Assembly (NCBI GenBank): GCA_944363565.1
Contig: CALVUI010000001.1
Span: 494,350-558,349 of the forward strand
Direction: 5' to 3'
Origin: an uncultured Bacilli bacterium
GTDB lineage: Bacteria > Bacillota_I > Bacilli_A > RFN20 > CAG-826
DNA length: 64,000 bases
The notes under the pieces are model-generated. The model did not search any database and was not told the origin of the DNA. It saw only the letters and a list, made by a program, of their open reading frames with translations. A program made the translations under genes and the position numbers. Positions within the stretch are counted from its first letter, which is position 1, and each line of letters begins with the position of its first letter. Shown piece by piece: positions 10,532-29,001 of this stretch.

Positions 10532-11653
10532 ATGCCAAAAAGTAAGCACATCCGCGCGGTCTTGGCCGCTTTGCGAAGGGCCGATGCCGATTTCTCTCTT
10601 ATCGATGAAGGTGACCGTATCGCTTTGGGTCTAAGTGGAGGCAAGGATAGCCTTTGCCTTCTATACGCTTTGAGCTTATATGGGAGGTTCGCCGGGAAGA
10701 AGTTCAAGGTCTATCCGGTCTTCATGGATCTCGGTTTTGGAAACGTCGACATCATTGCCCTCAAGGAATATTGTGGAAGTCTCGGCTATGAGCTGACGGT
10801 CAATGATTCGGCCTTCGTCTACGATGTCCTAAAAGCCCATCAGGAAAAGGGGAAGCATCTCCCCTGTTCGATCTGCTCAAGGATGAAGAAGGCCGCCATC
10901 AATGCCGAGGCCAAGAGGCTAAGATGCAACAAGGTGGCCTTTGCCCACCACCAGGACGACGCGGTCGAGACCCTCTTCATGAACATGGTCCATGGAGGGA
11001 GGGTCGCCACCTTCTCCCCGAAGATGGTCCTAAAAAGAAGCGGTCTGACTTTCATTCGTCCCCTCATCTATTGCCATGAGAAGCAAATGATCGATCTAGC
11101 CAAGGAAATGGAACTCCCGGTCTTGAAGTCGGCCTGCCCGGCCGACGGCCATACCGACCGCGAGGAAGTGAAGCATTTGTTGCAAGACATCTATAGGAAA
11201 TACCCGGAAGCCGAGAAGAACTTTGGGTATATGCTGAAGAACCACGAGGCCTTCGACCTCTATTTCGACGACATCGAATTGGAGGGGGAAGTCCCGACCG
11301 GCTATAGCGTCTCCCCCGTCGTCAGTGCCCGTCAAATGCGGGGCCTGAAGCTTTCCTCCAAGAAGGAAAGGGAGGGGGAACGCGACTTCGTCATCAGGAA
11401 AAACCACGAGGTGGTGGGGGAAGTGGCGTTGGTGAAGCTTTTGCCGCACCGTTACGGGCTCTACTACCTAGAAGGGGACGAGAAAACCCTCGCCAAGGGC
11501 TTATCGGTCCTCATCGAGCGCCTTTCCAAGGACGTCTTCCCCTTGACCCTAATCATGGAAAGGGGGCATCCGAAGGTGGCAAAAGCCCTAGGGTTTGCCT
11601 ACCTCCCCGTCCCCGGAAGCGGGAAGAAGGGCTACTTCAGGAAGATCGGCTGA
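10532..11653 (+). CDS. PP-loop ATPase of the TtcA/tRNA-thiolation family with extra C-terminal domain
   Basis: The ORF track starts at 10346, but that region is antisense to truB. I used ATG 10532 (MPKSKHIR); 10508 is an alternative. PP-loop LGLSGGKDS, LPCSICSRMKK motif, and a ~120-aa C-terminal extension of unknown function. Confidence 0.8.
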   Translation: MPKSKHIRAVLAALRRADADFSLIDEGDRIALGLSGGKDSLCLLYALSLYGRFAGKKFKVYPVFMDLGFGNVDIIALKEYCGSLGYELTVNDSAFVYDVLKAHQEKGKHLPCSICSRMKKAAINAEAKRLRCNKVAFAHHQDDAVETLFMNMVHGGRVATFSPKMVLKRSGLTFIRPLIYCHEKQMIDLAKEMELPVLKSACPADGHTDREEVKHLLQDIYRKYPEAEKNFGYMLKNHEAFDLYFDDIELEGEVPTGYSVSPVVSARQMRGLKLSSKKEREGERDFVIRKNHEVVGEVALVKLLPHRYGLYYLEGDEKTLAKGLSVLIERLSKDVFPLTLIMERGHPKVAKALGFAYLPVPGSGKKGYFRKIG

Positions 11654-12616
11654 AGGCCGGCTTAGGGCCTCGGCCGCCTCAAGGTAGAAGGCGGCGAGGT
11701 CTTTTTTGAAGGACGCGGGCTCGAGTATTTCCATTTCCTTCCCGAAGCGCAGCAAGTAGTTGAAGAGCTTGAGGTAGGGCCCTTCGAGGAGGTAGACCCC
11801 CTCCCCCAATGGGGTTACTTCCGGGCGGTTGTGCCAAAAGGCCCGTAGCATCCGCTTCCCTTCCTTGCTTAATCTGACTTTGACGCGCCTAGGCACGTCG
11901 GAAAGGTAGTCGGGCCCTTGGGCCAAGGCCCGGGCAAGCCTTTCCTCCTCTTCCTCGTCGAAGTCGCAGCGAACCAGACTCGGATAGACTTCCCCGAGGC
12001 GGTTGAGGCGGATGGAGGTCACGCGGTCAGCGAGGAGGCCCACCGCGTAGACAAAGTATTCCTCGCGGCTAGGAAGGACGGCATAGAGGCGGAAGAGGGC
12101 CTTGCCCTCCTTCGAGGAAATCTTGACCGCCGTCTTCGAGGAAAGCGCCTCTTCCAAGATCAAGAGGGTATCGCGGAACATCCAGGCTTCCCGTTCGGCC
12201 TGGGGCAAGGAGACGTAGGAATCGAAGAGACTACGGAGGTAGTCGCTCATCGAGCGGTCGCTTAGGTACTCCGACTCGATGCGGTCGATGATCCGTAGGC
12301 ACTCCTTGCTGGGGCGGAAAGAAAGGGAACAGTCGAACTTGGCCTTGAATAGACGCGGGGGCCGGCTTTCAAGCAGAGGCAGCAAGGCCGTGGTGAGCTT
12401 CCCGTACCTCGCCATCTTCTTGAGGGTGAAGGAGCGGACCTTTTCCTCGAGCCTCTTGGAAGCCACCTCGATGTGGGGGAAATAGTTGACGATGAGGGTG
12501 GAAAGGAAGCGGCTTTTGTTGACTTCGTTGCCGCGGTAGAAGCCGAAGCGCTCCATGTCGCTGGTGAGGACATAGTACGTAAGGTAGGTGAGGTTGACCT
12601 TGATCTTTTCTTCCAT
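11588..12616 (-). CDS. WYL + WCX domain protein (putative nucleic-acid-sensing regulator)
   Basis: Start trimmed to ATG 12614-12616 (MEEKIKVNL), preceded by GAAGGGGA. WYL-like core FVYAVGLLADRVTSIRLNRLGEV. C-terminal WCX-like LLRFGKEMEILEPASFKKDL. The 3' end overlaps the convergent upstream gene by 66 nt. Confidence 0.7.
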   Translation of the reverse strand: MEEKIKVNLTYLTYYVLTSDMERFGFYRGNEVNKSRFLSTLIVNYFPHIEVASKRLEEKVRSFTLKKMARYGKLTTALLPLLESRPPRLFKAKFDCSLSFRPSKECLRIIDRIESEYLSDRSMSDYLRSLFDSYVSLPQAEREAWMFRDTLLILEEALSSKTAVKISSKEGKALFRLYAVLPSREEYFVYAVGLLADRVTSIRLNRLGEVYPSLVRCDFDEEEEERLARALAQGPDYLSDVPRRVKVRLSKEGKRMLRAFWHNRPEVTPLGEGVYLLEGPYLKLFNYLLRFGKEMEILEPASFKKDLAAFYLEAAEALSRPSADLPEVALLPASGDGEVGKP

Positions 12617-12758
12617 GGTTTTCCCCTTCGTTCCTTGATTCGGAACCATTTTACAACTTGAATTAAGGATATTCCTAATGTTTCTTGTCATAAACATGAC
12701 CCTTTCATTTATGTTTTTTGCCCCTCTTTTATTTTCCCTAGCGGGATACAATACGCCT

Positions 12759-13305
12759 GCACCCCGGTGAAGTTGGTCTTACAGACCGCCGGGAGGTGCC
12801 CGACATGAGCGGCCCTCGGGGGATACCCCGCGGGAGAGCGAACGCCGCGGCCGATAGCCAAAGGCCGCGGGGAGAGGCGTGAGCCTCCCCGCCGGGCATT
12901 GTGCGGGCATGGTCGACACCTAGACTGCCCGAAGGCGCAGGGGAACAAGTTCCCGCAAGGGACGCCGTCTCCCAACAGTGTGAGAAACTGCGGAGCAAGG
13001 GACGGTATTCTCAAGACAATCCCTCGGAGTTGACGTCGGGGAAACCCGCCTATAATGCGCAATCGGGGCACGAGTAGGGGAAGCTCCAAAGTTTCCATGG
13101 AATGTCGAGATCCGACGTTCCCTGAAAGTCGGGCGAGGCAGATTCGCCCCCAGGCCATCGCAAGATGGTGTCTCATGGCCCTACTAGGGTTCGGGTCGCT
13201 CCCGGGCTCTCGGGGTAGGGTCGCCTGGTCAGTTAGCAAGGCCCAGACCACAACGCCCGTAAGGGGAAGCCCTGCAAGCCAAATGCCGCCCTCGGGCGGT
13301 TTTTG
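12759..13305 (+). ncRNA. Unclassified large (~550 nt) structured RNA candidate
   Basis: ORF-free GC-rich block. TACAAT -10 box at 12747-12752. Many stable hairpins, at least five of them GNRA-capped (coordinates in the findings). Ends in a GC stem plus T5 terminator at 13286-13304. The 5' end is only inferred. Confidence 0.55.
13286..13304 (+). terminator. Intrinsic terminator ending the structured RNA candidate
   Basis: CCGCC-CUCG-GGCGG stem-loop (13286-13299) followed by TTTTT (13300-13304). Confidence 0.65.
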
Positions 13306-13431
13306 GCATGCTCTCCCCTGCCGCTACCGAGCTTGGACGCTCGTCATGGCGACGATATATCGCTTCCTCTCTCTACTGTTTTAAGGCATATGACCGCTGA
13401 CAGAGGGGCGCGGCCTCAGTAGAATTGGCTC

Positions 13432-15736: not shown

Positions 15737-17884
15737 ATGGATTAGCAGAACCTTTTAGCAGGGGTCGGAATCAATCAAACTCTCATCACCTATGACGCTG
15801 TTGTAGATTAGCAGAACCTTTTAGCAGGGGTCGGAATCGCGAACTACGTCCGGACATCGGGGCACTAGGTAGATTAGCAGAACCTTTTAGCAGGGGTCGG
15901 AATCGAAGGGTGCGGAGACCCCGCGGGGGAAGCCGTAGATTAGCAGAACCTTTTAGCAGGGGTCGGAATCGCCTTTAAGGTTCTCTTGAAATCCAAAGAT
16001 GTAGATTAGCAGAACCTTTTAGCAGGGGTCGGAATCTCAACGGGCCAAGCGGTCCGCCCGGCGCTAGTAGATTAGCAGAACCTTTTAGCAGGGGTCGGAA
16101 TCGTCAGGTCCTTTCTTCCGTCCTTCACGCTCGTAGATTAGCAGAACCTTTTAGCAGGGGTCGGAATCGGATCAAGAAGGAATATCCGGAAATCGCGAGT
16201 AGATTAGCAGAACCTTTTAGCAGGGGTCGGAATCTCCTTCCTTTGGCCGTTCGCCCATGCCTGGAGTAGATTAGCAGAACCTTTTAGCAGGGGTCGGAAT
16301 CTGTAGCTGATGTGTTCATTTGTTTGGTGTCGTAGATTAGCAGAACCTTTTAGCAGGGGTCGGAATCCCACCACGATGGCGACGAGATTAGTCATCGGTA
16401 GATTAGCAGAACCTTTTAGCAGGGGTCGGAATCCGGCATGCAAAAAAACGCCCAGGATTACAGTAGATTAGCAGAACCTTTTAGCAGGGGTCGGAATCGC
16501 GTTCGGTCGTCAACTGATAGGTCTCATAGTAGATTAGCAGAACCTTTTAGCAGGGGTCGGAATCGTTGCGCATTACCTGGTTTGTATCAAGCATGTAGAT
16601 TAGCAGAACCTTTTAGCAGGGGTCGGAATCGGCTGCGGGAGAATACGGCGAACACACGCAGTAGATTAGCAGAACCTTTTAGCAGGGGTCGGAATCGCGT
16701 GGGTCATCAGCGCGGAACCCTATCCGGTAGATTAGCAGAACCTTTTAGCAGGGGTCGGAATCTGGTCAGGTTGTCGGCGTTGGTCAGTTTGAGTAGATTA
16801 GCAGAACCTTTTAGCAGGGGTCGGAATCAGATAACGCTTGCCGTCTCTTTCTATTAGGTAGATTAGCAGAACCTTTTAGCAGGGGTCGGAATCATGCACA
16901 ATGAACACCGGGGACATCATTCCGGTAGATTAGCAGAACCTTTTAGCAGGGGTCGGAATCGTCCAAGCGTGTTAACATACGCGCAAAGGAGTAGATTAGC
17001 AGAACCTTTTAGCAGGGGTCGGAATCAAGCGCAAGTATGGCTCTATGCCCATCGCTGTAGATTAGCAGAACCTTTTAGCAGGGGTCGGAATCATGGTTCC
17101 GAACTGCACATCGTATCGCGCCGTAGATTAGCAGAACCTTTTAGCAGGGGTCGGAATCCCCTTTCCATCTCGCCATCGCAAATCAGGCGTAGATTAGCAG
17201 AACCTTTTAGCAGGGGTCGGAATCCGATGGAGGTGAAAATGCTTTGAATCATCTGTAGATTAGCAGAACCTTTTAGCAGGGGTCGGAATCCTCTCCCCAT
17301 ATGAAAACCTCATCGCTTCCAGTAGATTAGCAGAACCTTTTAGCAGGGGTCGGAATCAACGATCAGGTGCGGAAAATGCGAGGCATGGTAGATTAGCAGA
17401 ACCTTTTAGCAGGGGTCGGAATCTCCCCAGATCAACAGATGGTAATGCGGTCTGTAGATTAGCAGAACCTTTTAGCAGGGGTCGGAATCCGATCTCGGCG
17501 ATTACAATCAATTTGTTGCGTAGATTAGCAGAACCTTTTAGCAGGGGTCGGAATCATCAAAACGGATATACCCAAGGGTATACTGGTAGATTAGCAGAAC
17601 CTTTTAGCAGGGGTCGGAATCCGAACATGGAGCAAGTTTGGTTTCCCCATTGTAGATTAGCAGAACCTTTTAGCAGGGGTCGGAATCGCTGGAGCCGAGG
17701 GATTAGGGAGACCGCGGGTAGATTAGCAGAACCTTTTAGCAGGGGTCGGAATCGGCGAGGGTCTTTTCCTCTTGCCCGGGGTGTAGATTAGCAGAACCTT
17801 TTAGCAGGGGTCGGAATCCCACACGGCCCGCGCACTCCTGAGGCGATGGTAGATTAGCAGAACCTTTTAGCAGGGGTCGGAATC
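15737..17884 (-). CRISPR. Type II CRISPR array: 33 x 36-nt repeats, 32 spacers of 29-31 nt
   Basis: Plus-strand repeat GTAGATTAGCAGAACCTTTTAGCAGGGGTCGGAATC, with starts counted one by one from 15737 to 17849. The repeat at 15737 is degenerate (ATGG instead of GTAG), so that is the trailer end. tracrRNA complementarity says the crRNA is the minus strand (repeat GATTCCGACCCCTGCTAAAAGGTTCTGCTAATCTAC). Confidence 0.97.
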
Positions 17885-17894
17885 CTACGAGCAA

Positions 17895-17918
17895 ATTATA
17901 GGCCAAAAAGTGTGTCAA
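17895..17918 (-). promoter_or_regulatory. Candidate pre-crRNA promoter in the short leader
   Basis: On the minus strand, a perfect TATAAT (plus 17895-17900) lies 10 nt upstream of the first repeat. A TTGACA is present (17913-17918), but at a non-canonical 12-nt spacing. Confidence 0.4.
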
Positions 17919-17945
17919 ATAGAAGGTTTTATGGTATTTTGAGTC

Positions 17946-18968
17946 GTGGAAAATTCAGGAAAATTACTTTCAGTCATAACCGTTTTCAACAAAGAAGCCA
18001 AAAAATTTTACGAATTTTCGAGGCTTAATCTGATTTTTGGATACGCAGGATCTGGAAAATCAACCTTTTTATCGCTCCTCTCCTCCATTTTTACCGGCAA
18101 GGACAAACATCACTTGGTCAACGGTACACAGACGGTGGCTAAAGACTTCAACGTCATATATTTGGGAACCGACGATGGGATATCGAATCACCTGAAGCTT
18201 AGTTCCAAAAGCCTATTGAGAAGAATCATCGCGGAAAGCAAATATTCGGACTCGTTTGATCAATCGTGTGAACAAATGTTTAAGGGGATGAACCAAGCCC
18301 AAGAAGAAATTGAGGGCAGGATAAAGGAAATTCTTCCTGGAAGCACGGTCAAGATAACGGATTCTGGGCACCCCTTAGATTTTCTAATCGACAACATGAC
18401 CATAGAAATAGAAGGGGATTCGTCAAGCGAAGAAAAGAAAAAGCTTTTCGGTTTGATTCGCTCCCTTTCCTCCAACACGGCCATCAAGACCATCGTTTTG
18501 ATTGACGATTTCAACGATGACTTCGATGAGGAAACGACATTGAAATTCTTGGAGGAAATAGACAAAAGCAATGCATACTTCTTTTTGACGACAAAACGTT
18601 CCACTCCCCAAACATATCTCGAGGAAGGCGTAAAAATCTTCGCCATGAGGGAATTCGAAGCAATACCACTCCCCGATATCAAGACCTTGCTTCTGAATTC
18701 TTTGGTGGAAAACCAGGAATACAAAACGTTTGAGGAATACATAACCGGCAAGGGGTACGTCGAAAACTCCGGTTTGGCCGAAATGTTCCTGCATTACATA
18801 CAGGGTGACGAAAAAACCAACCTGCTAAGAATCCTGACCGCCAAATCGCCGGTTCTGGCACACGAAAACATACCGGGGAAAGTTACGATTGTGCCAATCA
18901 GCACAGAGGAAGAAAGATTATACAAATCCGTCTTCGAAAGCCTCGGCATACCACTAGATCAAAATTAG
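17946..18968 (+). CDS. ABC/AAA_15-like P-loop ATPase with ~120-aa C-terminal domain, in the csn2 position but on the opposite strand
   Basis: 340-aa ORF with GTG start. Walker A GYAGSGKST. Signature-like GDSSSEEKKKL. Walker B/D-loop IVLIDDFNDDFDEE. Shares the AT-rich codon usage of the cas genes. Its 3' end overlaps the cas2 3' end by 15 nt (convergent). Confidence 0.8.
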   Translation: MENSGKLLSVITVFNKEAKKFYEFSRLNLIFGYAGSGKSTFLSLLSSIFTGKDKHHLVNGTQTVAKDFNVIYLGTDDGISNHLKLSSKSLLRRIIAESKYSDSFDQSCEQMFKGMNQAQEEIEGRIKEILPGSTVKITDSGHPLDFLIDNMTIEIEGDSSSEEKKKLFGLIRSLSSNTAIKTIVLIDDFNDDFDEETTLKFLEEIDKSNAYFFLTTKRSTPQTYLEEGVKIFAMREFEAIPLPDIKTLLLNSLVENQEYKTFEEYITGKGYVENSGLAEMFLHYIQGDEKTNLLRILTAKSPVLAHENIPGKVTIVPISTEEERLYKSVFESLGIPLDQN

Positions 18969-19292
18969 CTGTTCTGCTGTTTCCTTTACTTCCTGCTCGG
19001 TTTTTTCTCCGGCGACAAGCACCATGCTTTCAAATTGGTTTTCCGTCACTTTCAAAATCCTAACGTTGCCGCTTTTCACCGAATAGGACTGAATCCTTCG
19101 CATGTGCTTGGCGGCATCGGTGTCGTTGTTGCAAAAACGGGTATAAACCGAGTATTGGAGCATCATGAAACCGGAATCCATGATGAACTTGCGGAATTTG
19201 GTGTATTCGCGCCTTTGGGCTGCCGTTTCCACCGGCATATCGAAGAGAACGAAGAGCCTCATGTTCCTGTAAGATGGTCCTTCAAAAGACAT
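18954..19292 (-). CDS. cas2: CRISPR-associated endoribonuclease Cas2 (type II)
   Basis: 112 aa. SYRNMRLFVLFDMPVETAAQRREYTKFRKFIMDSGFMMLQYSVY matches the type II Cas2 pattern. Overlaps the cas1 stop. Confidence 0.92.
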   Translation of the reverse strand: MSFEGPSYRNMRLFVLFDMPVETAAQRREYTKFRKFIMDSGFMMLQYSVYTRFCNNDTDAAKHMRRIQSYSVKSGNVRILKVTENQFESMVLVAGEKTEQEVKETAEQLILI

Positions 19293-20199
19293 CGGCTTTA
19301 TCGTTGGGGTAAAACTGGGGCGTTTTCACGACTTTAATATCCCCGGTTCGCATATATTCGACGTAATCGTTCACGAGCATGGATATGGCGTAAGAAATCT
19401 GAAATTTCTTTCCGTCTACCAAGACGTTGTAATTTAGGAGATTGACCATTCCCCTCCTCAATTCGCCGCTTAGGGGGATTTCTATTCCGGCCAGGTTATT
19501 GTAGACGTAGTAGTCTACGACCTGACGGAACGGCTCGACCAAATCGCATGAGAGATTGTTGGCGTTTTTCATGTTGGCGTGCCAGATGCCGAGGCAATCG
19601 TTAAGACCATTGAAGGCAACGCTGCGAATGACGGCACCCGTCAAAACCATGTAGCCGTAATTCAGCGCGGATGAAACCGGCGAGCTGCCGAAACGGATGA
19701 AATCGGGACCGAATAAGCATCGGAAATATTCCCTGGCCGCCTGACCTTCCATGTTTTTCTCGTCACCGAATTTGACTTCTCCCCGATAGGATTTCAAGCG
19801 ATCATAAACGGTAGGATCGTTCACCGTGTTTTCTATTACCGCCATTTGGTTGGCGATTTTTTGACGGATGATGATTTCCCAAACCTTGTTTTTCTTGCTG
19901 GGGAGCATCTTGATTTGACGATCCAACATTTCCGATTGCAAATAATGGCCGTTTATCGGTGCCACGACGGAGGCAGGAACGTAGTCGGAACCGCAGAAGA
20001 CGATGGAAGCTCCGTATTTTCTAAGTTCGCACAATAGACGTGCGGTGACAATGGAATTGGGATCCTCGACGAAAATCAAATCCAAGTCTTCCAGCGGAAA
20101 ACTCAGTGGCCGTTCGGAGTCATCCTTCTTGATTATGACGTTGTTGTCGCAAAGAGAAAGTTTGGCAGCGGACTGGACATAAAGCTGTCGAAATCCCAT
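19282..20199 (-). CDS. cas1: CRISPR-associated endonuclease Cas1 (type II)
   Basis: 305 aa with type II Cas1-like sequence (MGFRQLYVQSAAKLSL...). Lies directly after cas9 (1-nt gap). Confidence 0.92.
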   Translation of the reverse strand: MGFRQLYVQSAAKLSLCDNNVIIKKDDSERPLSFPLEDLDLIFVEDPNSIVTARLLCELRKYGASIVFCGSDYVPASVVAPINGHYLQSEMLDRQIKMLPSKKNKVWEIIIRQKIANQMAVIENTVNDPTVYDRLKSYRGEVKFGDEKNMEGQAAREYFRCLFGPDFIRFGSSPVSSALNYGYMVLTGAVIRSVAFNGLNDCLGIWHANMKNANNLSCDLVEPFRQVVDYYVYNNLAGIEIPLSGELRRGMVNLLNYNVLVDGKKFQISYAISMLVNDYVEYMRTGDIKVVKTPQFYPNDKADVF

Positions 20200-20200
20200 C

Positions 20201-23200
20201 TCAACTTATCTTTCCGAGAACGGAAATAGATTTGACTTTAATTTTCTTGATTTGAGAAATTGTCAACAAAAATCTATCGCCATTGAATTCCAAGTCGTAT
20301 CCATCGCCGAGGGGAGAATAGATTTCAAACAGTCCTTTGGACAACCCTCCGCTATAACAAATAAAATTAATCGGAGATTTCCCGCGAGGCAAGTAGTCAA
20401 GTTCCAAAAGTGAATACCTCGGTATTCTATAAAGCAATTTATAGCCATTTTCGAGCGAATCCGAGTTAATTTGGCAGTTTTGATCGTCTCTACCCCAAAA
20501 CAAAGTATACAAAATTTCAGATTTGTTCTTCGATTGTCGGGACTGTTTATTCTTCAAAATCTGCCAGTAATAGATAGGCACAAAATAATAGATATCACCT
20601 CCATCGCGTTTTTGATAAACGTCAACCCGAATAACCTCGTCATTTTCGGCATATTTCCCATCCGACAAATCGACTTTGTCCTTTGCGATTCCCTCAACAA
20701 TCCTAATATATTTTACGGGTGTCCCCATGTTTTTCCCGATAACGGGATATTCACCCCGATTACTCTCCTCTTTCTCTAGCCATTTTTTACAAGCTTCATA
20801 AATCGCTTTGCTGCCAGATTCGCGATGCTCGATCTTTTCAAGTTTATCAAAATTCAATTTTTTTACAGAAATTTTGTGAACCGTTTGACCGCAGTCGTTA
20901 ACACCCAATATCGTTTCTTTTGAAATCGGCCCACTAACGTTGGTTTTTGGAGAACGCGCGGGGATCAAAACGTGCACCGTCTTGTCAGTGGCTGGCTCGT
21001 CCTTGTAATTAGAAAGGGCATTCAATTTTGAAATTAGGGTTTGTTTATCCCTTTCATATACACGAATCAGGACCTCTTCCCTAAAGTTGCGATATGGGAA
21101 ACGAATTTCCCCGTTTTCATCGTATTCAGGTGAACACTCCTCGTGTTTCTGATAAGCCTTGGTTATACGTTGAATAAGGCGAGGATTGGAACAGGCTATG
21201 ACAGCAGCATCGAGAGCGTGGTGCAAATGGTTAGAGCGATCCTTCTCGTTGCTATCTTTTTGAATTTTCCTCCTTAGACAGGAGAGAATATAAATGCCGC
21301 ATTCGCGCCTTTCCGAATCGTTAGGGTTATTTGATTGCGCGGAAATGGCTTCTTGCAACTCATCGACACCGGTCGCAATGCCTTTCAAATCATTGAATTT
21401 TTCGTAGAAATAAGGATAAAACTCATCGCTAAGAAATAATTTAAGCATTTTATTGTGCAAAAATTTCTTTTCGTCGTCCTTTGATCCTTCCTTATTAATG
21501 GAATGGGGTTCAACTTTAAATGGTAATGGTTCCTTGGCGTTATCAAATTTATACTTGAATACGAGGCTTTTTTTGTTGTTCTCTTTTTCCATCCCTTGGT
21601 AAACATATTTGCTCATGGGCTTGGCTTTATAGTCATCGTATGCAAGATAGGAATGGGTATGGCCGCTCAGACCCCAAATGTCGCGGAGTTTTGCGGTTAT
21701 GCCACCGGAAACGCTACGGCATTGGACGCCTTTCGGCAAAACGTAATAAGTAATGAGCTGACGAGCGAGACGGGCGATGTAAGCATTATCAGTACTGTCC
21801 TTGTTGAGGAAGTCATCGGATATTTTGGTGGCTAGCAACTTCCGTCTTTTGCCAGGTTCGATGGCGTGCGAATTAAGATAGGCATATAGAGGAGCGCTCT
21901 TTTCTTCGGTATTCAGCCATTCCAGAGGTGTACGATTTCGTTTTTCCTGGTTGCATCTCGCTTCCACAAGCACTTTGTTTGAAATCGAATCGTCGAAAGA
22001 ACGAGAATATGGCAGAATATGGTCGATTTCATACCATCCGTCATCGAACAAATAGCTCGCTTTTATTGACTCATTGGTATAGGGGCTCACTCCCCGCTGT
22101 TCACAATACAGGCGATATTTCAGTAAACTGTTTTTCTGCCGTGAAATATTCCCATACGATTTAAACAAACCGGGGTATTTTTCAATCATTTCGTTACGAT
22201 ACCTATCGTTGTTCGAAAGATTGTCGAGCTGCTCCCCTTGAAGCTTCAATCTATCATTGGAGTTCTTTTTTATTTCTCTTCCGAGTTCGATTGCACAATC
22301 ATCGAAAAACCCATACCGGTCGATAATGGCATTTATTATCCTTCTCATCCTAACAAGAGTGTTGCGAACCACGGGATTAGTGAGAGTTTGCTTTGTTTCT
22401 TGGAGACATACATCAAGTTCGGGCATCCGCATTTGATCATTGTTCTGACGAAGACTGGTATGGCTATAGCCAATGTTGGCCATCGCTTTGTCATAGGTAA
22501 ATCCTTTTCTCATTTCTGGTATTAATTTCTTGCAAAGTCCCAGAGAAAGATCGATCGTTCCGCTAACATTTACGTCAAAATCCAAAACGTCGCTGATTTC
22601 TGTTTCGGAAAGATTAAGAGCCCTGAGTTTCGATTTGACTTCAATTTCAAGCGGCTGGTCTTTCTTATCCTTTTCTTCATCTTCCAAATGGAGACAATTA
22701 CGTAATGTGTCATCAGTTTTGTAAAGCCCGAACGCACTTATCAATGCATCAATGCAATCGTCCCCGGCATTTTTAAATCGTTCTTTTTTTCCGATAAGCG
22801 ACAATGCATCAGAACCTTTATAAAAATAGGATTTCCCTAAGGTTTTTCTTTTGTGAAATTTGTAAAAGTCGCCAAGTTTATCGCTCGGAATCTGCATCGT
22901 TTCAATGCCGTTCTCTTCACAAAAAGTCTTGAGGGACTCGTCAAATTTCTTTTTGCCTACGTGAAGGCCTTTAACATCCAAAATCTTATCGGGGTCGATA
23001 CCTACTTTTTTCAGCAATTGTTCATATGTAATCGTCTTCGCGAATAGGCATCCTTTTTCGGCTTTTTCGATTTGCTCGGGAGTCAAACGGGAATATTCCT
23101 TTTGCTCTGGGCTAGTTTTGTAGGAAAAGTTGTTTAAGGCCGAAAGTAAGACAAACCTCTTTGCGGTTATCGTATCCTTAAAAGCCCTAGGTTTTTCGTC

Positions 23201-24010
23201 GAAAATACATTTTCCGATTTTGTCGACAGGCTTGACGTAATAAGGCGAGCCTTCAGCCGGACCATAAGAACAATCGCGCTGTCTAGACCAAAGATCCATA
23301 AAGTCAGCGATGAACTCATCACTGACAAGACCGAATTCCTTTTGTTTATCCAAAAGAGCGCGAATTTCCGGCTCGTACCACTCTCTCCTAACTGTGAGAT
23401 AGAAATGATCAGGATCGTTATGAATTTTCGCACCGATTCCGTTTTTGGAGCGTTCGGCAAAATCTTTCAGCAAGCACACAGTAGGATAAAAAGGCTTTCC
23501 TTCCTGATAATGCTTATTTTTAAAGGCTTCCATAATGGGGAGCAACTTTTTATCGTCGTTATTCTTTGGTTTCTCGCTCTTTCGGTTGCTCTTAAAACCT
23601 CTGAACTTTAAATAATGGTAAAGAGCGATGCAAAGTTCTTCTTTGGTCAAAAGTTCTGTCAACCCCTTCACCTTCAATTGAAACGGGGTGGTAGGCGTAC
23701 CATCTTCGTTAAAAGAAACGGGTAATTTGGCAATGACATCATTGAAGAAATCTAATCCGAAGTATTTTGCAAAGAGATTCCTCCCTTCTTCCAAGCGGGT
23801 TACTCTGCGCCTTCTTTGACGGCGCATGAGACGTTTCTGCCGTCTAACTATATTTTCAGTCTTCCCTTTGTTATCTTCGATTTGGTCGAAAACGTATGAT
23901 CCCAAATCTATTATCTTTTTAGGATTGCCATCTTCGTCATCTTCGAACAAGCACCAGCCGATGCTCGCGATTCCAAGGTCCAAACCTAATGTCTTTTTGC
24001 CCATTGTCAT
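20201..24010 (-). CDS. cas9: Cas9 (1269 aa)
   Basis: RuvC-I LGLDLGIASIGW. Arg-rich bridge helix RRQKRLMRRQRRRR. HNH YEIDHILPYSRSFDDSISNKVLV...CNQEKRNRTP. RuvC-III NHLHHALDAAVIA. RBS AGGAGGA upstream. AT-rich codon usage compared with flanking DNA. Confidence 0.97.
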   Translation of the reverse strand: MTMGKKTLGLDLGIASIGWCLFEDDEDGNPKKIIDLGSYVFDQIEDNKGKTENIVRRQKRLMRRQRRRRVTRLEEGRNLFAKYFGLDFFNDVIAKLPVSFNEDGTPTTPFQLKVKGLTELLTKEELCIALYHYLKFRGFKSNRKSEKPKNNDDKKLLPIMEAFKNKHYQEGKPFYPTVCLLKDFAERSKNGIGAKIHNDPDHFYLTVRREWYEPEIRALLDKQKEFGLVSDEFIADFMDLWSRQRDCSYGPAEGSPYYVKPVDKIGKCIFDEKPRAFKDTITAKRFVLLSALNNFSYKTSPEQKEYSRLTPEQIEKAEKGCLFAKTITYEQLLKKVGIDPDKILDVKGLHVGKKKFDESLKTFCEENGIETMQIPSDKLGDFYKFHKRKTLGKSYFYKGSDALSLIGKKERFKNAGDDCIDALISAFGLYKTDDTLRNCLHLEDEEKDKKDQPLEIEVKSKLRALNLSETEISDVLDFDVNVSGTIDLSLGLCKKLIPEMRKGFTYDKAMANIGYSHTSLRQNNDQMRMPELDVCLQETKQTLTNPVVRNTLVRMRRIINAIIDRYGFFDDCAIELGREIKKNSNDRLKLQGEQLDNLSNNDRYRNEMIEKYPGLFKSYGNISRQKNSLLKYRLYCEQRGVSPYTNESIKASYLFDDGWYEIDHILPYSRSFDDSISNKVLVEARCNQEKRNRTPLEWLNTEEKSAPLYAYLNSHAIEPGKRRKLLATKISDDFLNKDSTDNAYIARLARQLITYYVLPKGVQCRSVSGGITAKLRDIWGLSGHTHSYLAYDDYKAKPMSKYVYQGMEKENNKKSLVFKYKFDNAKEPLPFKVEPHSINKEGSKDDEKKFLHNKMLKLFLSDEFYPYFYEKFNDLKGIATGVDELQEAISAQSNNPNDSERRECGIYILSCLRRKIQKDSNEKDRSNHLHHALDAAVIACSNPRLIQRITKAYQKHEECSPEYDENGEIRFPYRNFREEVLIRVYERDKQTLISKLNALSNYKDEPATDKTVHVLIPARSPKTNVSGPISKETILGVNDCGQTVHKISVKKLNFDKLEKIEHRESGSKAIYEACKKWLEKEESNRGEYPVIGKNMGTPVKYIRIVEGIAKDKVDLSDGKYAENDEVIRVDVYQKRDGGDIYYFVPIYYWQILKNKQSRQSKNKSEILYTLFWGRDDQNCQINSDSLENGYKLLYRIPRYSLLELDYLPRGKSPINFICYSGGLSKGLFEIYSPLGDGYDLEFNGDRFLLTISQIKKIKVKSISVLGKIS

Positions 24011-24312: not shown

Positions 24313-24633
24313 ATGGACGCCAAAACGAAAGAAAGAATCCGCCGCTTCAGCATCGACCGGGACTATGACCAGTTCCACTGCCCCGCCAACCTCGCCAAGT
24401 CGATTGCCATCGAAGCGGCCGAACTTTTGGAATGCTTCCAGTGGGACGATGCCCACTACGACGTGGAAGCCGTGAAGGAAGAACTAGCGGACGTCTTGGT
24501 CTATGCCCAGAACCTCATCGAGAAGCTCGGCCTTGATGAGGACGAGATAATCAACGCCAAGATGGACAAGAACGAAGCCAAGTATCCGGTTGCGAAAGCC
24601 AAGGGGCGTTCGACCAAGTACGACAAGCTATGA
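24313..24633 (+). CDS. MazG-like all-alpha nucleoside triphosphate pyrophosphohydrolase
   Basis: Start trimmed to ATG 24313 (MDAKTKERI). Motifs AIEAAELLECFQW and ELADVLVYAQNL (EExxE / ExxD type). The stop overlaps the next start (ATGA). Confidence 0.8.
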   Translation: MDAKTKERIRRFSIDRDYDQFHCPANLAKSIAIEAAELLECFQWDDAHYDVEAVKEELADVLVYAQNLIEKLGLDEDEIINAKMDKNEAKYPVAKAKGRSTKYDKL

Positions 24634-26498
24634 TCATCTATTCCGGTACCCTGGGGCAATTCGACAAGGAAGTGATGGAGGGTGGCATCGCCGACCTCAT
24701 CGAACAGTGCCTCATTGCCCATGGGCTCGGGGGCAAGGGCGAAGCGGAATACCGTAGCTGGAACAACTCCTTGCGCTGCATCCGCGATGCCCTCACATAC
24801 GAAAACAAAATAGACCGCCGCCTCAGGGTGGCCGTGGAATTCCAAATCCCCCAAACCTCCAAGAGGGTCGACTTCATCGTCTCGGGCCTCGGGAAGGACG
24901 TCAAGACGAAAAACGCCGTCATCGTCGAACTCAAGCAATGGGACCATGTCGAAGCTACCGACATGGAAAACGTCGTCGAAACCTTCGTCGGCGGGGCCAA
25001 CCGCCACATGGCCCATCCCTCGTACCAAGCCTATTCCTATTGCCAAACCATCAAGGCCTTCAACCTCGATGCCGAGGACATCGAGCTTTCGCCGTGCGCC
25101 TATCTCCACAACCTCCAACCGCGGGAAGCCGCGGGCATTTGGAATCCGATGTACCGCCAAATCCTCGACCTTTCCCCCTCCTTCATCGCCAACCAGGCCA
25201 TCGGCCTCCGCGATTTCATAAGGAGCAAGATATGGTTCCCCGACCAAGGGGAAACTATCAAGGCCATCGACTCCGGCCGCATCGGACCGACCAAGTCCTT
25301 GCAGGAGGCCATCGGGGAAATGATTGAAGGGAACTCGGCCTTTTGCTTGCTCGATGAACAGAAGGTCGCCTACGAGACGATCCTAGACTACGTCGAAAGA
25401 GCCAAAGGGAAGTCCACCATCATCGTCGAAGGAGGCCCGGGGACCGGGAAGTCGGTCATCGCCATCAACCTCTTGGCCCGCTTGACAAGGGAAGGGAAGA
25501 CCACGGCCTATGTTTCCAAAAACGCCGCCCCGCGGAGCGTCTACGCCAAGGAACTTTCCAAAGGCCACTACACCAAGGGTTACGTCAATACCCTCTTCAA
25601 GGGTTCGGGCTCCTTCGTCGATTGCTATGAAAATGCCTATTCCGTTCTCTTGGTCGACGAGGCCCACCGCCTCGGCCTCAAAAGCGGCCTCTTCCAAAAC
25701 AAAGGCGAGAACCAGATGCGGGAAATAATCCACGCTTCCCGGGTTTCCGTCTTCTTCATCGACGAAAGGCAACGCATCAGCAGTAAGGACTACGGCTCGA
25801 TTGCCGCCATCGAAGAGGCGGCGGCCAAGGAAAATAGCCATATAGTCAAGGGCGATGACCTCAAGCTCCTAAGCCAGTTCCGCTGCAACGGTTCCGATGC
25901 CTACCTTTCCTTCGTCGATTCCTTCCTAGACGGCAAGAATGCCATACCCGAGGACCTCGACTTCGATTTCCGCCTTTATACGGATCCGTGCCGGATGCGG
26001 AAGGACCTCCGTCTCCTCAACGAGGCAGACAACCGTTCGCGGATGCTTTCGGGCTACACGTTCGACTGGATTAGCAAGGCGGGAGGGCGCAACGCTCCTT
26101 ACGACATAGTGTTGTCCGGCGGCTTCAAGGCCCGCTGGAACCTCGGTTCCACCCAAACCTGGGCCATCGACCCCGATTCCTTCGAGGAAGTGGGGTGCAT
26201 CCATACGAGCCAAGGGCTGGAATTTTCTTATGTCGGAGTCATCATCGGCCTCGACATGCATATGGACGAAGGAAAGCTGGTCTATGACCCGAAGAAGAGG
26301 GCTAAGACCGACCAATCGCTCAGGGGAATCGCCAGCCACGGAGGGGAAGCGGCCGCGATGGGCATCATCCGCAACACCTACCGCACCCTTTTGACTAGGG
26401 GGCAAAAAGGATGCTTCGTCTATATCCAAGACCCGGCGCTCCGGGAAAAATTAAAGTCCGCGCTCATCCGAAGCGGCCATACCGATAGGATATTCTAA
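24630..26498 (+). CDS. DUF2075-like SF1 helicase with N-terminal PD-(D/E)xK-like nuclease domain
   Basis: 622 aa. N-terminal RVDFIVSG...AVIVELKQW (D...ExK). Walker A EGGPGTGKS. Walker B LLVDEAHRL. C-terminal HTSQGLEFSYVGVIIG helicase motif. Confidence 0.85.
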   Translation: MIIYSGTLGQFDKEVMEGGIADLIEQCLIAHGLGGKGEAEYRSWNNSLRCIRDALTYENKIDRRLRVAVEFQIPQTSKRVDFIVSGLGKDVKTKNAVIVELKQWDHVEATDMENVVETFVGGANRHMAHPSYQAYSYCQTIKAFNLDAEDIELSPCAYLHNLQPREAAGIWNPMYRQILDLSPSFIANQAIGLRDFIRSKIWFPDQGETIKAIDSGRIGPTKSLQEAIGEMIEGNSAFCLLDEQKVAYETILDYVERAKGKSTIIVEGGPGTGKSVIAINLLARLTREGKTTAYVSKNAAPRSVYAKELSKGHYTKGYVNTLFKGSGSFVDCYENAYSVLLVDEAHRLGLKSGLFQNKGENQMREIIHASRVSVFFIDERQRISSKDYGSIAAIEEAAAKENSHIVKGDDLKLLSQFRCNGSDAYLSFVDSFLDGKNAIPEDLDFDFRLYTDPCRMRKDLRLLNEADNRSRMLSGYTFDWISKAGGRNAPYDIVLSGGFKARWNLGSTQTWAIDPDSFEEVGCIHTSQGLEFSYVGVIIGLDMHMDEGKLVYDPKKRAKTDQSLRGIASHGGEAAAMGIIRNTYRTLLTRGQKGCFVYIQDPALREKLKSALIRSGHTDRIF

Positions 26499-26506
26499 GG
26501 AAGGAT

Positions 26507-27403
26507 GTGCCGTCCATACACCGACTCATCAAAAAAGAAGGCCGTTACTACGTCGATGACGAAATGGACAGCGTCGACATAAGCAAGGAGGATTGGATTG
26601 CCTTGATCGATGACCCGGAGGTGTTCAACGGAAAATCATTGGAAGTGCTTGGCTATTTCTATGAAGAAGAGGACCATCAGGCGTCGACCAAGCAAATAAC
26701 CGATAAATACGGCCTTGCCTCCAAGAACTTCAACGGCGTCATCATCGGCTTGGGCAAGAGAGCCCAGAAGGTTTTGGGACAACGGGCTACCGTGGTCCAG
26801 CAATCCAACCCTTCCGGCTTGTCCTACTGGTGTCTCTTCTTCCATGGCCATGAGGACAACGGCTTCGTTTGGAGGGTCCGCGAACCACTCGGGGAGGCCC
26901 TTCACGAAACCGGCATCCTGAGTGTCTTCCGGGAAGAAAACGAAAAGGAAGATCCCCTTTGTACGGAGATATTCAAAGAAGGGCAAATCACGAAGATTTA
27001 CGGCCGAAAATACGAAAGAAACCCGCAAATCCGCCGCGCCTTCGTCAAAAACTTCAAAAAGAAACACGGACGGGTCTACTGCGAAGCCTGTGGATTTGAT
27101 TTCGGGAAAACCTATGGGAAATTGGGAGAGGGTTTCATCGAAGTCCATCACAACAAACCGATTTCTTCCTTCAAGGACGAACACGAAGTCGATATCGAAA
27201 AAGACCTCAATTGCCTTTGTTCCAACTGCCACCGGATGATTCATGCCAACAAGAAACGCATCCTTTCGGTCGAAGAACTAAGGGCGAAATCGAAAAGGCC
27301 AAAAAGAACTAAACCAAGTTTCACATCAGTAGACAGTTATCTCTTCCTCATTATCAAAAACCCTCCCCATGCGGGGAGGGTCAAGGAAGGAAGGGGAACT
27401 TAA
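26507..27403 (+). CDS. HNH endonuclease (McrA-like) with N-terminal domain of unknown function
   Basis: 298 aa with GTG start after AAGGAAGGA (an alternative ATG is at 26564). HNH core CEACGFDF...IEVHHNKPIS...CSNCHRMIH. Confidence 0.8.
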   Translation: MPSIHRLIKKEGRYYVDDEMDSVDISKEDWIALIDDPEVFNGKSLEVLGYFYEEEDHQASTKQITDKYGLASKNFNGVIIGLGKRAQKVLGQRATVVQQSNPSGLSYWCLFFHGHEDNGFVWRVREPLGEALHETGILSVFREENEKEDPLCTEIFKEGQITKIYGRKYERNPQIRRAFVKNFKKKHGRVYCEACGFDFGKTYGKLGEGFIEVHHNKPISSFKDEHEVDIEKDLNCLCSNCHRMIHANKKRILSVEELRAKSKRPKRTKPSFTSVDSYLFLIIKNPPHAGRVKEGRGT

Positions 27404-27405
27404 GC

Positions 27406-28965
27406 CTATGCTTTTTCCATCACGATGTCGGAATAAGAACTATAAGCGATTTTGCCCGATTCAATCATTAGGGTGCCGTTGGTGGCATCGTAGACCAGAA
27501 CCAAATCGCGGGCTACCCATCCGTTTTCACCCGGGAAGACGAGCGTGTAGATGTCTCCTTCCACCGTCGAGGCCTCGCTATCGATTACGGAGACTTCTTC
27601 GCCTGACGACCAGTTAATATCGTATTCATCGTAGCAAGTAATTTCGGTTTCGGAATCGAAGTCAATATACATGCCATAACCGTCTCCAACCTCGTACGAA
27701 TACCAAGTCGTTCCAATCAAAGCCTCCGGAATCGTGGCCCCGGTCGTGCCTTGGAAGGCATTGACGCTTACGTTAATTGTCTTGGTAATGCTTCCGCAGA
27801 CAACGGTGATCGCGGCTTCGCCCCCGCCGTTTGCGAGCAATATCACCCTTTCCCCTTCGGCGTTATCGCTATTGCCGGTATAATCGAATCCGACGACGGA
27901 AGTGTCTTCGACGCTCCAAAGGATGTCTTCGGTGCAATTGTGGGGCTCGGCATCGGCTTCAAGTTGAATCTCGTCACCTTCGTCAAGGACGATGGTCTCT
28001 GTAACCTCTACCCCGTCTTTGGTAACCGTAAGATCGGTGGCATCGACGAACTTGTAGCCGCTGAAGTCGACCATGACGGCACCCGAGGCATCGGTGTAGG
28101 AAATGGCCAAAGCACTATACTGAGTCCCAATCGTCGCGGTTTCCGCGGGATTCGGATCGTTGTAGTCCTCGGCAAGATAGTAGGTCGAAGAGAATCCATC
28201 ATTACCTACCGGATAGAGGACGAGGTCTTCGAGGACGATGTCCATGCTGCTGTCGGGACTGACGGTATGGAAGTTGACCTTGTCCTTTTCGACCACGACC
28301 GTCACATCAGGAATCACCTGCTCATAAGCGGAGGTATAGGCATAATCCGTGACGGTCAGACTCCCCTTGTAGGTCCCCTGGAGGCTATGGTCAATGGTTT
28401 CGGCGTAGTCCTCCCCGCAGTCGGCGCTGATGAAGGCGCCCCTGAGGACGACGTGGCCGGTGGCCTCGATCTTGAAGTAGTGGGGGGCATAGGTCCATTC
28501 GCCATAGGTGACGTTGTTTTCCATCTCCCCGACTTCGTACCAGCCCTTGCCGTCGCGGCTGACCGAGAGGGTGAGCTTCCCGGTGGTCCCGGTTCCATAG
28601 ACGACCTTCAGGGCCGCCATCTCCCGGATGTAGGTGGTGTTGTAGATGATGCCTCCGCTTTCCATGGTGGTGAGGGTATCGGCGGCCTCATCGCCCGGTA
28701 AGACGGTGCCCATGGGCCCTGCGGCCTGCATCTCGAGGACAGCCCCGTCGGGAGCCACGTGGGTAATGGCCCCGAAGTTGCTAGCCGAAGGGTTGGTGAC
28801 GATGGTGCAGTTTTCGTAGGCGAGGACAAAGGTCCTTTCGTACTCCTGGGCCGCCCCGACTAGTGGGGTCAGGGCATGGCCAGCGAAGTAGGCGGCCGAG
28901 CCGAGAACCGCCCCGCCGGCCACGAGGGCGGCGGCGAGGAGGACGGCTTTCTTGGTGTTTTTCAT
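27406..28965 (-). CDS. Secreted/membrane-anchored surface protein with Ig-like (Big_2-type) module
   Basis: 519 aa. N-terminal MKNTKKAVLLAAALVAGGAVLGSAAYFAG hydrophobic anchor. Ig-like segment ...ILWSVEDTSVVGFDYTG...AITVVCGSITKTINVSV. Confidence 0.8.
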   Translation of the reverse strand: MKNTKKAVLLAAALVAGGAVLGSAAYFAGHALTPLVGAAQEYERTFVLAYENCTIVTNPSASNFGAITHVAPDGAVLEMQAAGPMGTVLPGDEAADTLTTMESGGIIYNTTYIREMAALKVVYGTGTTGKLTLSVSRDGKGWYEVGEMENNVTYGEWTYAPHYFKIEATGHVVLRGAFISADCGEDYAETIDHSLQGTYKGSLTVTDYAYTSAYEQVIPDVTVVVEKDKVNFHTVSPDSSMDIVLEDLVLYPVGNDGFSSTYYLAEDYNDPNPAETATIGTQYSALAISYTDASGAVMVDFSGYKFVDATDLTVTKDGVEVTETIVLDEGDEIQLEADAEPHNCTEDILWSVEDTSVVGFDYTGNSDNAEGERVILLANGGGEAAITVVCGSITKTINVSVNAFQGTTGATIPEALIGTTWYSYEVGDGYGMYIDFDSETEITCYDEYDINWSSGEEVSVIDSEASTVEGDIYTLVFPGENGWVARDLVLVYDATNGTLMIESGKIAYSSYSDIVMEKA

Positions 28966-29001
28966 AGCTTGCTTCCTTTCTCCCCTAAGAAAGGGGAACG
29001 T

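Follow-up and report, generated by a model that had tools for sequence, protein, structure and literature searches.

ROOL, the "Rumen-Originating, Ornate, Large" RNA, was described in 2017 (Weinberg et al., PMC5737381). ROOL RNAs, about 550–600 nt long and found in bacteria and phages, fold into flat multi-helix monomers and form protein-free hexameric or octameric cages, as seen by cryo-electron microscopy (PMC12286853, PMC12990946); the cage structure was solved in 2025, and the same papers state the function and the protein partner of the RNA as unknown. Their usual context is that of phages and prophages, near tRNA arrays (PMC5737381, PMC12286853). WYL1 is built from two ribbon-helix-helix (RHH) motifs, a WYL domain and a C-terminal domain through which it dimerises, and it binds single-stranded RNA (ssRNA) far better than double-stranded DNA (dsDNA) (PMC6547453). 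In the rsr-yrlBA-rtcBA operon of Salmonella, a divergent regulator, RtcR, senses cleaved tRNA (PMC7790460; see also PMC4201824). Here we analyse a 64,000-nt stretch of DNA from an uncultured Bacilli bacterium (the window, meaning this whole stretch), whose positions 12747-13306, on the plus strand, are the gene for a ROOL RNA, that is, a member of a known family and no new RNA class, lying divergently beside a gene for a WYL1-like protein. We give a probability of roughly 0.6 to the reading that this divergent chromosomal ROOL, co-inherited with the WYL1-like gene, most likely serves as the non-coding RNA (ncRNA) of an inducible RNA-damage/repair response and is part of the cargo of a defence island. 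The ROOL family itself is known; what is new is this genetic context, a WYL1-like gene of an RtcB-associated family, which is unreported: our literature search found no paper linking ROOL with RtcB or WYL.

When the whole window was scanned with cmscan, RF03087 (ROOL) was the single Rfam 15 match, with 113.6 bits against a gathering score of 99.1 (14.5 bits over the threshold; E 1.4e-22) and an untruncated alignment to model positions 1-574; an nhmmer profile also recovered the element. The RNA has a GC content of 63% and is about 43% identical to the RF03087 consensus. In the cmscan alignment, parsed by script, 118 of the 159 pairs of the model are standard, 24 are non-standard and 17 are gapped, and in 72 of the 118 standard pairs both sides have changed with respect to the AT-rich consensus. 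Of the highly conserved (upper-case) positions, 121 are kept, out of 167 aligned or 181 in model coordinates. The sequence blocks of the family (CCnGUGAAG, GGAUAC, GUGC, UAUAA, AGUAG, UGAAAGU, GGGUCGCUCCC and GUARGGnGAAG) all occur in the correct order, and the RNA fits exactly the two-block pattern GGGTCGCTCCC-N{40,70}-GTARGGNGAAG. This pattern retrieved 45 loci from IMG/VR and 30 from species-representative genomes, a few chance matches included; the genomic ROOLs obtained in this way came from Clostridia, Phascolarctobacterium, Coriobacteriaceae and Atopobiaceae and scored 237-404 bits.

The structure was tested on the script-parsed cmscan alignments and on a sequence-only MAFFT alignment of 22 ROOLs, for which 500 shuffles and 3′ partners slid by 1-3 columns served as controls. 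On the latter alignment, the structure derived from the window paired 61.1% of the cells, compared with 52.3% after shuffling (a value of this size in 0 of 500) and 36-49% after sliding; pairs with double changes numbered 90 (71.9 shuffled, 0/500; 44-63 slid) and the covariation score was 0.273 (0.142 shuffled, 0/500; at most 0.155 slid). Both strands of the gap fold better than their shuffles (z -3.9 for the plus strand and -3.0 for the minus strand), and for this reason strand and identity rest on the covariance-model match.

Could the gap hold something other than ROOL, either a GC-rich false positive or the coding region of a 180-aa open reading frame (ORF) on the minus strand? A score of 113.6 bits is far under the typical range, and in sister contigs gene callers annotated an ORF of 179 aa across the region; against this stand the full-length match with its low E value, the hallmark motifs all in order, the 72 compensatory pairs, an intermediate relative at 167.8 bits (the ROOL of locus L080, described below), ORFs without a family match and between-strain substitutions that keep pairing, and we find this alternative hardly credible. 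The RNA of the window does sit at the edge of RF03087 detection. Since such GC-rich relatives are barely reached by the Rfam model, the ROOL family is probably wider than listed. The RNA may also form a homo-oligomeric cage, as we propose solely because of its membership in the family.

An earlier note on this DNA, made from the sequence alone, had described an orphan RNA in the 815-nt gap between the start of the WYL/WCX gene (12616, minus strand) and the next plus-strand coding sequence (13432). Its picture of a large, GNRA-rich, multi-helix, plus-strand ncRNA with its own terminator and no ORF agrees with our results, and the class OLE/ROOL/GOLLD was rightly named; the orphan status is lost, given that the comparison with Rfam which the note had proposed returns a known family, ROOL RF03087, above the gathering score and over the full model length. 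The boundaries of the gap are as claimed, the start at 12616 being fixed by an N-terminal MEEKIK that is invariant in nine homologues. The GC-rich block following AT-rich promoter-side DNA is real (42.5% GC at 12600-12799, 68.5% at 12800-12999), and so is the lack of a credible ORF: four Arg/Pro/Gly-rich ORFs of the gap (180 aa on the minus strand; 109, 86 and 58 aa) gave no Pfam match even at E 0.1. A protein-coding reading of the gap was rejected on the ground that these ORFs lack any family match. Nine hairpins had been proposed. Six of them coincide with ROOL helices (12817-12830 with a GAUA loop, 12845-12870, 12876-12885 with GUGA, 13037-13048 with GAAA, 13131-13149 and, roughly, 13155-13168), two lie in the variable linker and have energy support only (13079-13096 and 13099-13121; -20.8 kcal/mol, z -3.4), and one, CCC-GUAA-GGG at 13256-13265, was probably read in the wrong register, the conserved hairpin AGGG-GAAG-CCCU at 13262-13273 taking its place. 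In solved ROOLs, the linker is disordered and lies inside the cage (PMC12286853). The predicted terminator is also there, a stable hairpin followed by U5 (Table 1), as is the TACAAT box at 12747-12752; cmscan aligns this box with positions 1-6 of the ROOL model, its 5′ tail, and it may be either a -10 box or part of the RNA.

How strongly is the RNA conserved? Sister contigs (L077-L079) encode a WYL protein that falls in the 90%-identity cluster of the window protein (about 94% identical) and carry a ROOL of 124.9 bits. Between the window and L077, the RNA with its terminator (12747-13306) is 98.8% identical, with 7 substitutions, compared with 91.4% for the WYL coding sequence (16, 13 and 59 substitutions at the three codon positions), 94.5% for truB and 83.1% for the 130-nt intergenic region, and homology stops about 20 nt past the terminator. 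When the substitutions were mapped by hand onto the pairs of the cmscan alignment plus one shifted-register helix, 4 of the 7 fell in predicted pairs, each keeping or creating a pair (A-U to G-U, U.C to U-G, U-G to C-G and G-C to G-U). No other segment of the neighbourhood is as constrained as the RNA, whose 3′ limit is the terminator. In sum, its family membership, its strand, its terminator-set 3′ end, strong purifying selection and the lack of a coding function are established.

The ORF downstream of the RNA (start 13432, plus strand) encodes 97 aa with two hydrophobic segments and has its own promoter-like site at 13397-13425. It found no family match in Pfam, PADLOC and further profile scans, is a singleton at 90% clustering and is absent from the sister strains, which have other genes there, including one for an AbiLi-like ATPase. 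A pairing of RNA and membrane protein like that of OLE and OapA, to which the note had cautiously likened this locus, is not upheld by these data: an OapA-like partner was rejected, the ORF being a singleton that is not conserved between sister strains, and the membrane ORF is not a ROOL partner because homology with the sister strain ends after the terminator.

On the other side of the RNA, the suggestion that the WYL neighbour matters is borne out and extended. The 342-aa protein matches the WCX family of Pfam (E 4.5e-6) and the WYL model of PADLOC (E 4.9e-12), and PF13280 (WYL) is recorded for many members of its family. In an AlphaFold2 model built with nine homologues (predicted local distance difference test score 78.7), two N-terminal units are followed by a β-barrel and a C-terminal α/β domain; each unit shows the succession strand-helix-helix (E5-9/H11-23/H34-66 and E96-100/H104-116/H123-135), as predicted for two N-terminal RHH motifs. 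The best Foldseek match in the PDB was WYL1 (6OAW; E 8.8e-15, TMq 0.68), on which the model superposes along its whole length, with DriD, PafBC, CapW and BrxR as the next matches, and a sequence profile searched against the PDB found WYL1 only (E 6.1e-17).

A single-sequence search of 5.8 billion proteins returned just eight relatives of the window protein. The closest homologue outside its ≥90% cluster, P0039, is 33% identical, is annotated "MAG: Bacilli bacterium" (MAG, metagenome-assembled genome) and is encoded in a locus of 36% GC, L080. Divergently upstream of its gene lies a ROOL of 167.8 bits (L080 7286-7880), at a spacing of 121 nt compared with 131 nt in the window, so that the divergent WYL-ROOL pair recurs in a second, distant lineage. 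The two ROOLs are mutual nearest relatives among 25 ROOLs (49-50% identity) and depart together from the consensus at 18 conserved positions. Counted in model coordinates, they have 93 standard pairs in common, 49 of them with changes on both sides; identity is 40% in paired columns and 60% in unpaired ones, a contrast that reads as the signature of a conserved RNA fold. The control region is alike too. The palindrome GTTCC-N7-GGAAC, a candidate operator, occurs once in the window where 0.10 is expected (at least one match in 10 of 100 shuffles), and all WYL loci linked to a ROOL (L046, L077-79, L080-84 and L088) carry it at the same place, 10-30 nt before the WYL start codon in both lineages; in L077 its arms are kept and its spacer differs. 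The simplest reading of these sequences would be one ancient WYL-ROOL unit, kept through divergence of the protein to 33% and of the RNA to about 50% identity, a shift of 20 points in GC and a change of the other neighbours. A long hairpin with a U8 tail closes the ROOL of L080, its end lying 20 nt ahead of the ATG of RtcB, the next gene; as this distance leaves no room for a separate promoter, RtcB is probably expressed there by read-through from the ROOL unit.

Adjacency might still have no functional meaning. In that case the RNA and the WYL gene would both be island cargo with linked inheritance, the WYL protein would regulate itself or other genes of the island such as CRISPR-Cas, and the finding would reduce to one more, unusually divergent, ROOL. 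The pair does lie in a variable island of about 21 kb with CRISPR-Cas9, an AbiO/Nhi-like helicase and a type IV restriction-like gene, the WYL model of PADLOC is a CRISPR-associated one, canonical ROOLs lack the WYL family of the window and the pair is known from two lineages only. What speaks for a real link is that L080 keeps the geometry and the palindrome though no CRISPR or defence genes are around, that the pair outlived a divergence to 33% in the protein and about 50% in the RNA, at 36% versus 56% GC, while all else around it changed, and that elsewhere in the WYL family the divergent slot is always occupied by the gene set that the family tracks. We consider mere linkage unlikely.

What does the WYL family track? 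A profile search collected 172 proteins, many of them annotated as WYL-domain proteins of Erysipelotrichaceae, Clostridia or Bacilli MAGs, and neighbourhoods were analysed in 33 metagenome loci and several further contigs. No ROOL was found with nhmmer in the 32 other WYL loci or in four syntenic relatives. The divergent neighbours of the other WYL genes are RtcB alone, DUF2828/DUF7788 (with VWA) and then RtcB, Band_7, or an FtsH-like AAA/M41 protein. Most of the members examined have RtcB and/or DUF2828/DUF7788 genes in this place, and RtcB belongs to the divergent unit in at least 17 of the 33 metagenome loci. In five loci (L103, L108, L112, L113 and L120), the 390-855-nt gap before DUF2828 contains tRNA-like elements on the operon strand, as detected with Rfam and ARAGORN. 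Alignment of the gaps between WYL and DUF2828/DUF7788 brought out two to four tandem modules built on a conserved stem, GACGC..ACAGCAA ... GCGTCTTG; inside one module sits a tRNA-like domain with the T-arm GGTTCGAATCC, and among Rfam models only that of tRNA matched these modules. By analogy, these modules look like arrays of YrlA-type Y RNAs. The 170 nt upstream of the WYL genes (L085, L086 and L089-L120) carry TGACC[C/A]CT twice, at a distance of about 50-56 nt; the proximal copy, with TACAAT or TACTAT immediately after it, is palindromic, and its half-sites covary (CCCT-TTT-AGGG or CACT-TTT-AGTG). These copies are likely operators of the WYL family of the window, and the covariation of the half-sites argues for DNA binding by its proteins. 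The element at 12735-12752 of the window resembles this family-wide module, and its palindrome, TCCC-TAGC-GGGA, retains its arms and has an altered spacer in L077.

Two side observations concern the same loci. Arrays of 4-10 tRNA genes lie directly downstream of WYL in three of them (L099 6061-6939, L108 4177-4515 and L112 6159-7197), echoing the tRNA-array context of canonical ROOL and GOLLD. Two of the loci have ordinary riboswitches, one for fluoride ahead of a Na+/H+ exchanger gene (L080 3992-4070) and one for thiamine pyrophosphate (L094 1535-1621).

What might a ROOL RNA do beside a WYL1-like gene? The ROOL of the window belongs to a deep chromosomal, non-phage branch that is inherited with the divergent WYL1-like gene. 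In the mechanism that we propose, the WYL protein would bind the palindromes in the 130-nt shared control region, its WYL domain would sense a nucleic-acid ligand, as DriD, PafBC, CapW and BrxR do, and in response to this ligand it would set the transcription of ROOL and of its own gene. Inside a WYL-linked RNA-repair module, ROOL would fill the ncRNA slot that tRNA-like or Y-RNA-like elements hold in sister loci. A place in an RNA-damage/repair response is most likely because relatives of the WYL gene adjoin RtcB and DUF2828 genes and because RtcB comes directly after the ROOL of L080.

Several observations weigh against this reading. Within the RNA, P1 forms 4 of 16 pairs and the long-range helices (12906-12926 with 13233-13274) 5 of 16 in the cmscan alignment, together 9 of 32, one of these poorly formed long-range helices pairing well in a shifted register (GCGGGC 12903-12908 with GCCCGU 13254-13259). 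A scan for sigma-70-like promoters found no site for the ROOL RNA. The window has no RtcB or DUF2828 gene, and no RtcA or Ro60-like gene either, and the genes that follow the ROOL differ between strains of this lineage. The DUF2828/DUF7788 proteins, which may be Ro60-like, gave nothing in a PDB sequence search for Ro60 homology. The WYL-ROOL pair is known from only two independent lineages, probably going back to one ancestral event, and its retention is suggestive of a function but no proof of one. In the flanking DNA examined around 20 non-redundant canonical ROOL loci, both the WYL family of the window and RtcB were absent; tblastn with the WYL family, RtcB, DUF2828, Band_7 and FtsH-like proteins found none in 76 canonical ROOL loci; and the 25 commonest of the 67 Pfam families found in 80 ORFs around 20 canonical ROOLs included neither WYL nor RtcB. 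In consequence, the WYL link may not hold for ROOL generally. Lastly, WYL1 itself prefers ssRNA to dsDNA (PMC6547453), and regulation through DNA binding is for that reason not assured.

The last point leads to another role for the protein, that of a direct RNA-binding partner of ROOL (in a ribonucleoprotein, as a chaperone or as a sensor with ROOL as its ligand) rather than mainly a transcription factor. The best structural and sequence match of the protein is a high-affinity ssRNA binder that disfavours dsDNA, ROOL offers a single-stranded variable linker, and no protein partner of ROOL is known. The conserved promoter palindromes of the whole family, with their covarying half-sites (CCCT..AGGG / CACT..AGTG), point the other way, as do the matches to DriD, PafBC, CapW and BrxR, which are transcription factors; and binding of DNA and binding of RNA are not exclusive roles. 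As the main activity of the protein, we regard RNA partnership as improbable.

Within the proposed RNA-damage/repair response, a more specific role can be put forward tentatively, and we hold it for possible at best: ROOL may be the RNA of a WYL-sensed RNA-damage response and a functional counterpart of the Y RNAs in Ro/RtcB operons, for example a cage or decoy for damaged tRNA or other RNA, or for their nucleases, which it would shelter, sequester or present. In this case the WYL1-like protein would be the first regulator or binding partner dedicated to ROOL. If true, this would also explain the phage ROOLs inside tRNA arrays. Phages are thought to use tRNA arrays against the tRNA-cleaving defences of their hosts. 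In any case, a chromosomal and strongly selected ROOL branch coupled to a ligand-sensing WYL1-like gene is a concrete, testable lead to the function of ROOL.

The WYL-ROOL pair is cargo of a defence island beside CRISPR-Cas9, not of a phage. By its TypA the host falls among uncultured Bacilli, relatives at 76-77% identity being named "Bacilli bacterium" and "Candidatus Enteromonas pullicola". In relatives with 81-89% TypA identity, the backbone runs from typA-ribF-truB and the PP-loop ATPase gene into rbfA-infB-nusA; this junction is uninterrupted in L126 (81% TypA identity) and has other cargo in L124 and L125, and in the window about 21 kb are inserted at it (Table 1). The WYL gene (minus strand) and the PP-loop ATPase gene (plus strand) converge at the island boundary, with a 66-nt overlap of their 3′ ends (11588-11653). 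The CRISPR array region amounts to just about 420 nt in Logan contig L046, where it is collapsed or different. Among the scanned window proteins, a subset of the ORFs, Cas13d was not noted; Cas9, Cas1 and the Csn2-like ATPase were there.

Is the element then a remnant of a prophage that carried ROOL? ROOLs typically occur in phages and prophages near tRNA arrays, those of the Clostridia type lying inside such arrays, and the conserved ROOL pattern matched 45 loci in IMG/VR. This context is not that of the ROOL of the window, where the only tRNA lies 43 kb away. Integrase and other phage families are absent from the Pfam matches of the window proteins tested, the WYL profile and a clade-specific ROOL pattern found no relatives in IMG/VR, and blastn of the RNA in distant mode gave no match in phage and plasmid records. 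With its lone distant tRNA and no viral relatives, a prophage origin was rejected as very unlikely.

The surroundings of canonical ROOLs deserve a mention in their own right. Among the 80 ORFs within 3 kb of 20 canonical ROOLs (L001-L076), the commonest Pfam family was Metallophos_2 (calcineurin-like phosphoesterase, 5 members), other families being phage integrase, MutS2/Smr, Abi_2, HipA and Macro domains. Matches to tmRNA or permuted tmRNA were seen in tRNA arrays beside canonical ROOLs of Oscillospiraceae and Clostridiales (L056 6328-6752 and L059 7577-7962).

Table 1. Features of the WYL-ROOL locus and its island (window coordinates) and of related gaps in other WYL loci (coordinates of the locus named).
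Feature	Position	Strand	Remarks
Gene for 342-aa WYL1-like protein	11588..12616	-	two RHH-like units, WYL barrel, WCX; divergent from the RNA
Palindrome GTTCC-N7-GGAAC, candidate operator	12630..12646		14-30 nt upstream of the WYL start codon
Palindrome GTCAT-AAAC-ATGAC, shared intergenic region	12687..12700		read from sequence
Palindrome TCCC-TAGC-GGGA with immediate TACAAT	12735..12752	+	possible operator plus -10 box, or 5′ tail of the RNA
ROOL RNA (RF03087)	12747..13284	+	divergent GC-rich member; ~540-560 nt including terminator; cmscan
Short variable ROOL linker (~35 nt)	13083..13117	+	local-end region of the cmscan alignment; two local hairpins
Intrinsic terminator (A-tract, GC stem, U5; bidirectional shape)	13278..13307	+	-23.1 kcal/mol, z -5.8
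Island cargo	11.6-32.5 kb		WYL, ROOL, small variable ORFs, CRISPR-Cas, AbiO/Nhi-like helicase, type IV restriction-like gene
Type II CRISPR-Cas locus	15802-24010		array of about 31 units, 36-nt repeat GTAGATTAGCAGAACCTTTTAGCAGGGGTCGGAATC
Csn2/AriA-like ATPase, 340 aa	17946-18968		strand opposite to the cas genes
Cas2			between Cas1 and the Csn2/AriA-like ATPase
Cas1	19282-20199	-	
Cas9	20201-24010	-	
AbiO/Nhi-like Schlafen-type helicase	24630-26498		
Type IV restriction-like gene	26507-27403		
Two large unknown proteins	27406-30693		also present in L124
Stem-module gap, L099	4448-5000	-	
Stem-module gap, L103	1927-2781	-	
Stem-module gap, L108	2573-3114	-	
Stem-module gap, L112	4508-5000	-	
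Stem-module gap, L120	4361-4751	-	

How does the locus compare with described systems? As judged from its sequence, the RNA resembles ROOL RF03087 in its full-length match, in the order of motifs and helices, in its similar length and in being an independent transcript that ends in a terminator. It differs from typical members in a P1 reduced to a few pairs, in the short linker (about 35 nt), in its coupling to a WYL1-like gene and in its setting, a chromosomal defence island of an uncultured Bacilli bacterium with no tRNA array nearby. GOLLD shares with canonical ROOL its large size, the formation of cages, the lack of a known function and the phage and tRNA-array context, but the window gives no match to the Rfam GOLLD model, and sequence and fold are unrelated. 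With OLE RNA and OapA, the locus has in common a large ornate RNA beside a small membrane-protein ORF, whereas OLE finds no match in the window and the 97-aa ORF none to OapA.

The protein has the same architecture as WYL1, an accessory protein of type VI-D CRISPR-Cas13d systems (6OAW; PMC6547453, PMC5935466), namely two RHH motifs, a WYL domain and a C-terminal dimerisation domain. The two are nevertheless only 16-17% identical in the Foldseek alignments, the CRISPR neighbour in the window is Cas9-based, the WYL family of the window tracks RtcB, DUF2828 genes and ROOL, not Cas13d, and it has operator-like palindromes, suggesting DNA binding. DriD, PafBC, CapW and BrxR likewise combine WYL and WCX, their genes adjoin the stress or defence operon that they control and are often divergent from it, and they take nucleic-acid fragments as ligands, which for DriD and CapW are ssDNA according to the titles of the PDB entries; those proteins, however, are of the winged helix-turn-helix type, whereas that of the window is RHH-like and its target is apparently an RNA gene.

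The locus departs from rsr-yrlBA-rtcBA in having a WYL protein as its regulator in place of a CARF/sigma-54 activator and ROOL in place of Y RNA, and the window itself is without RtcB, RtcA or a Ro60-like gene. The likeness is to be found in L080 and many members of the WYL family, where a nucleic-acid-sensing regulator would be divergent from a structured-ncRNA unit with RtcB, and by this analogy the layout of the WYL family appears to be that of the bacterial Ro60/Y-RNA/RtcB units.

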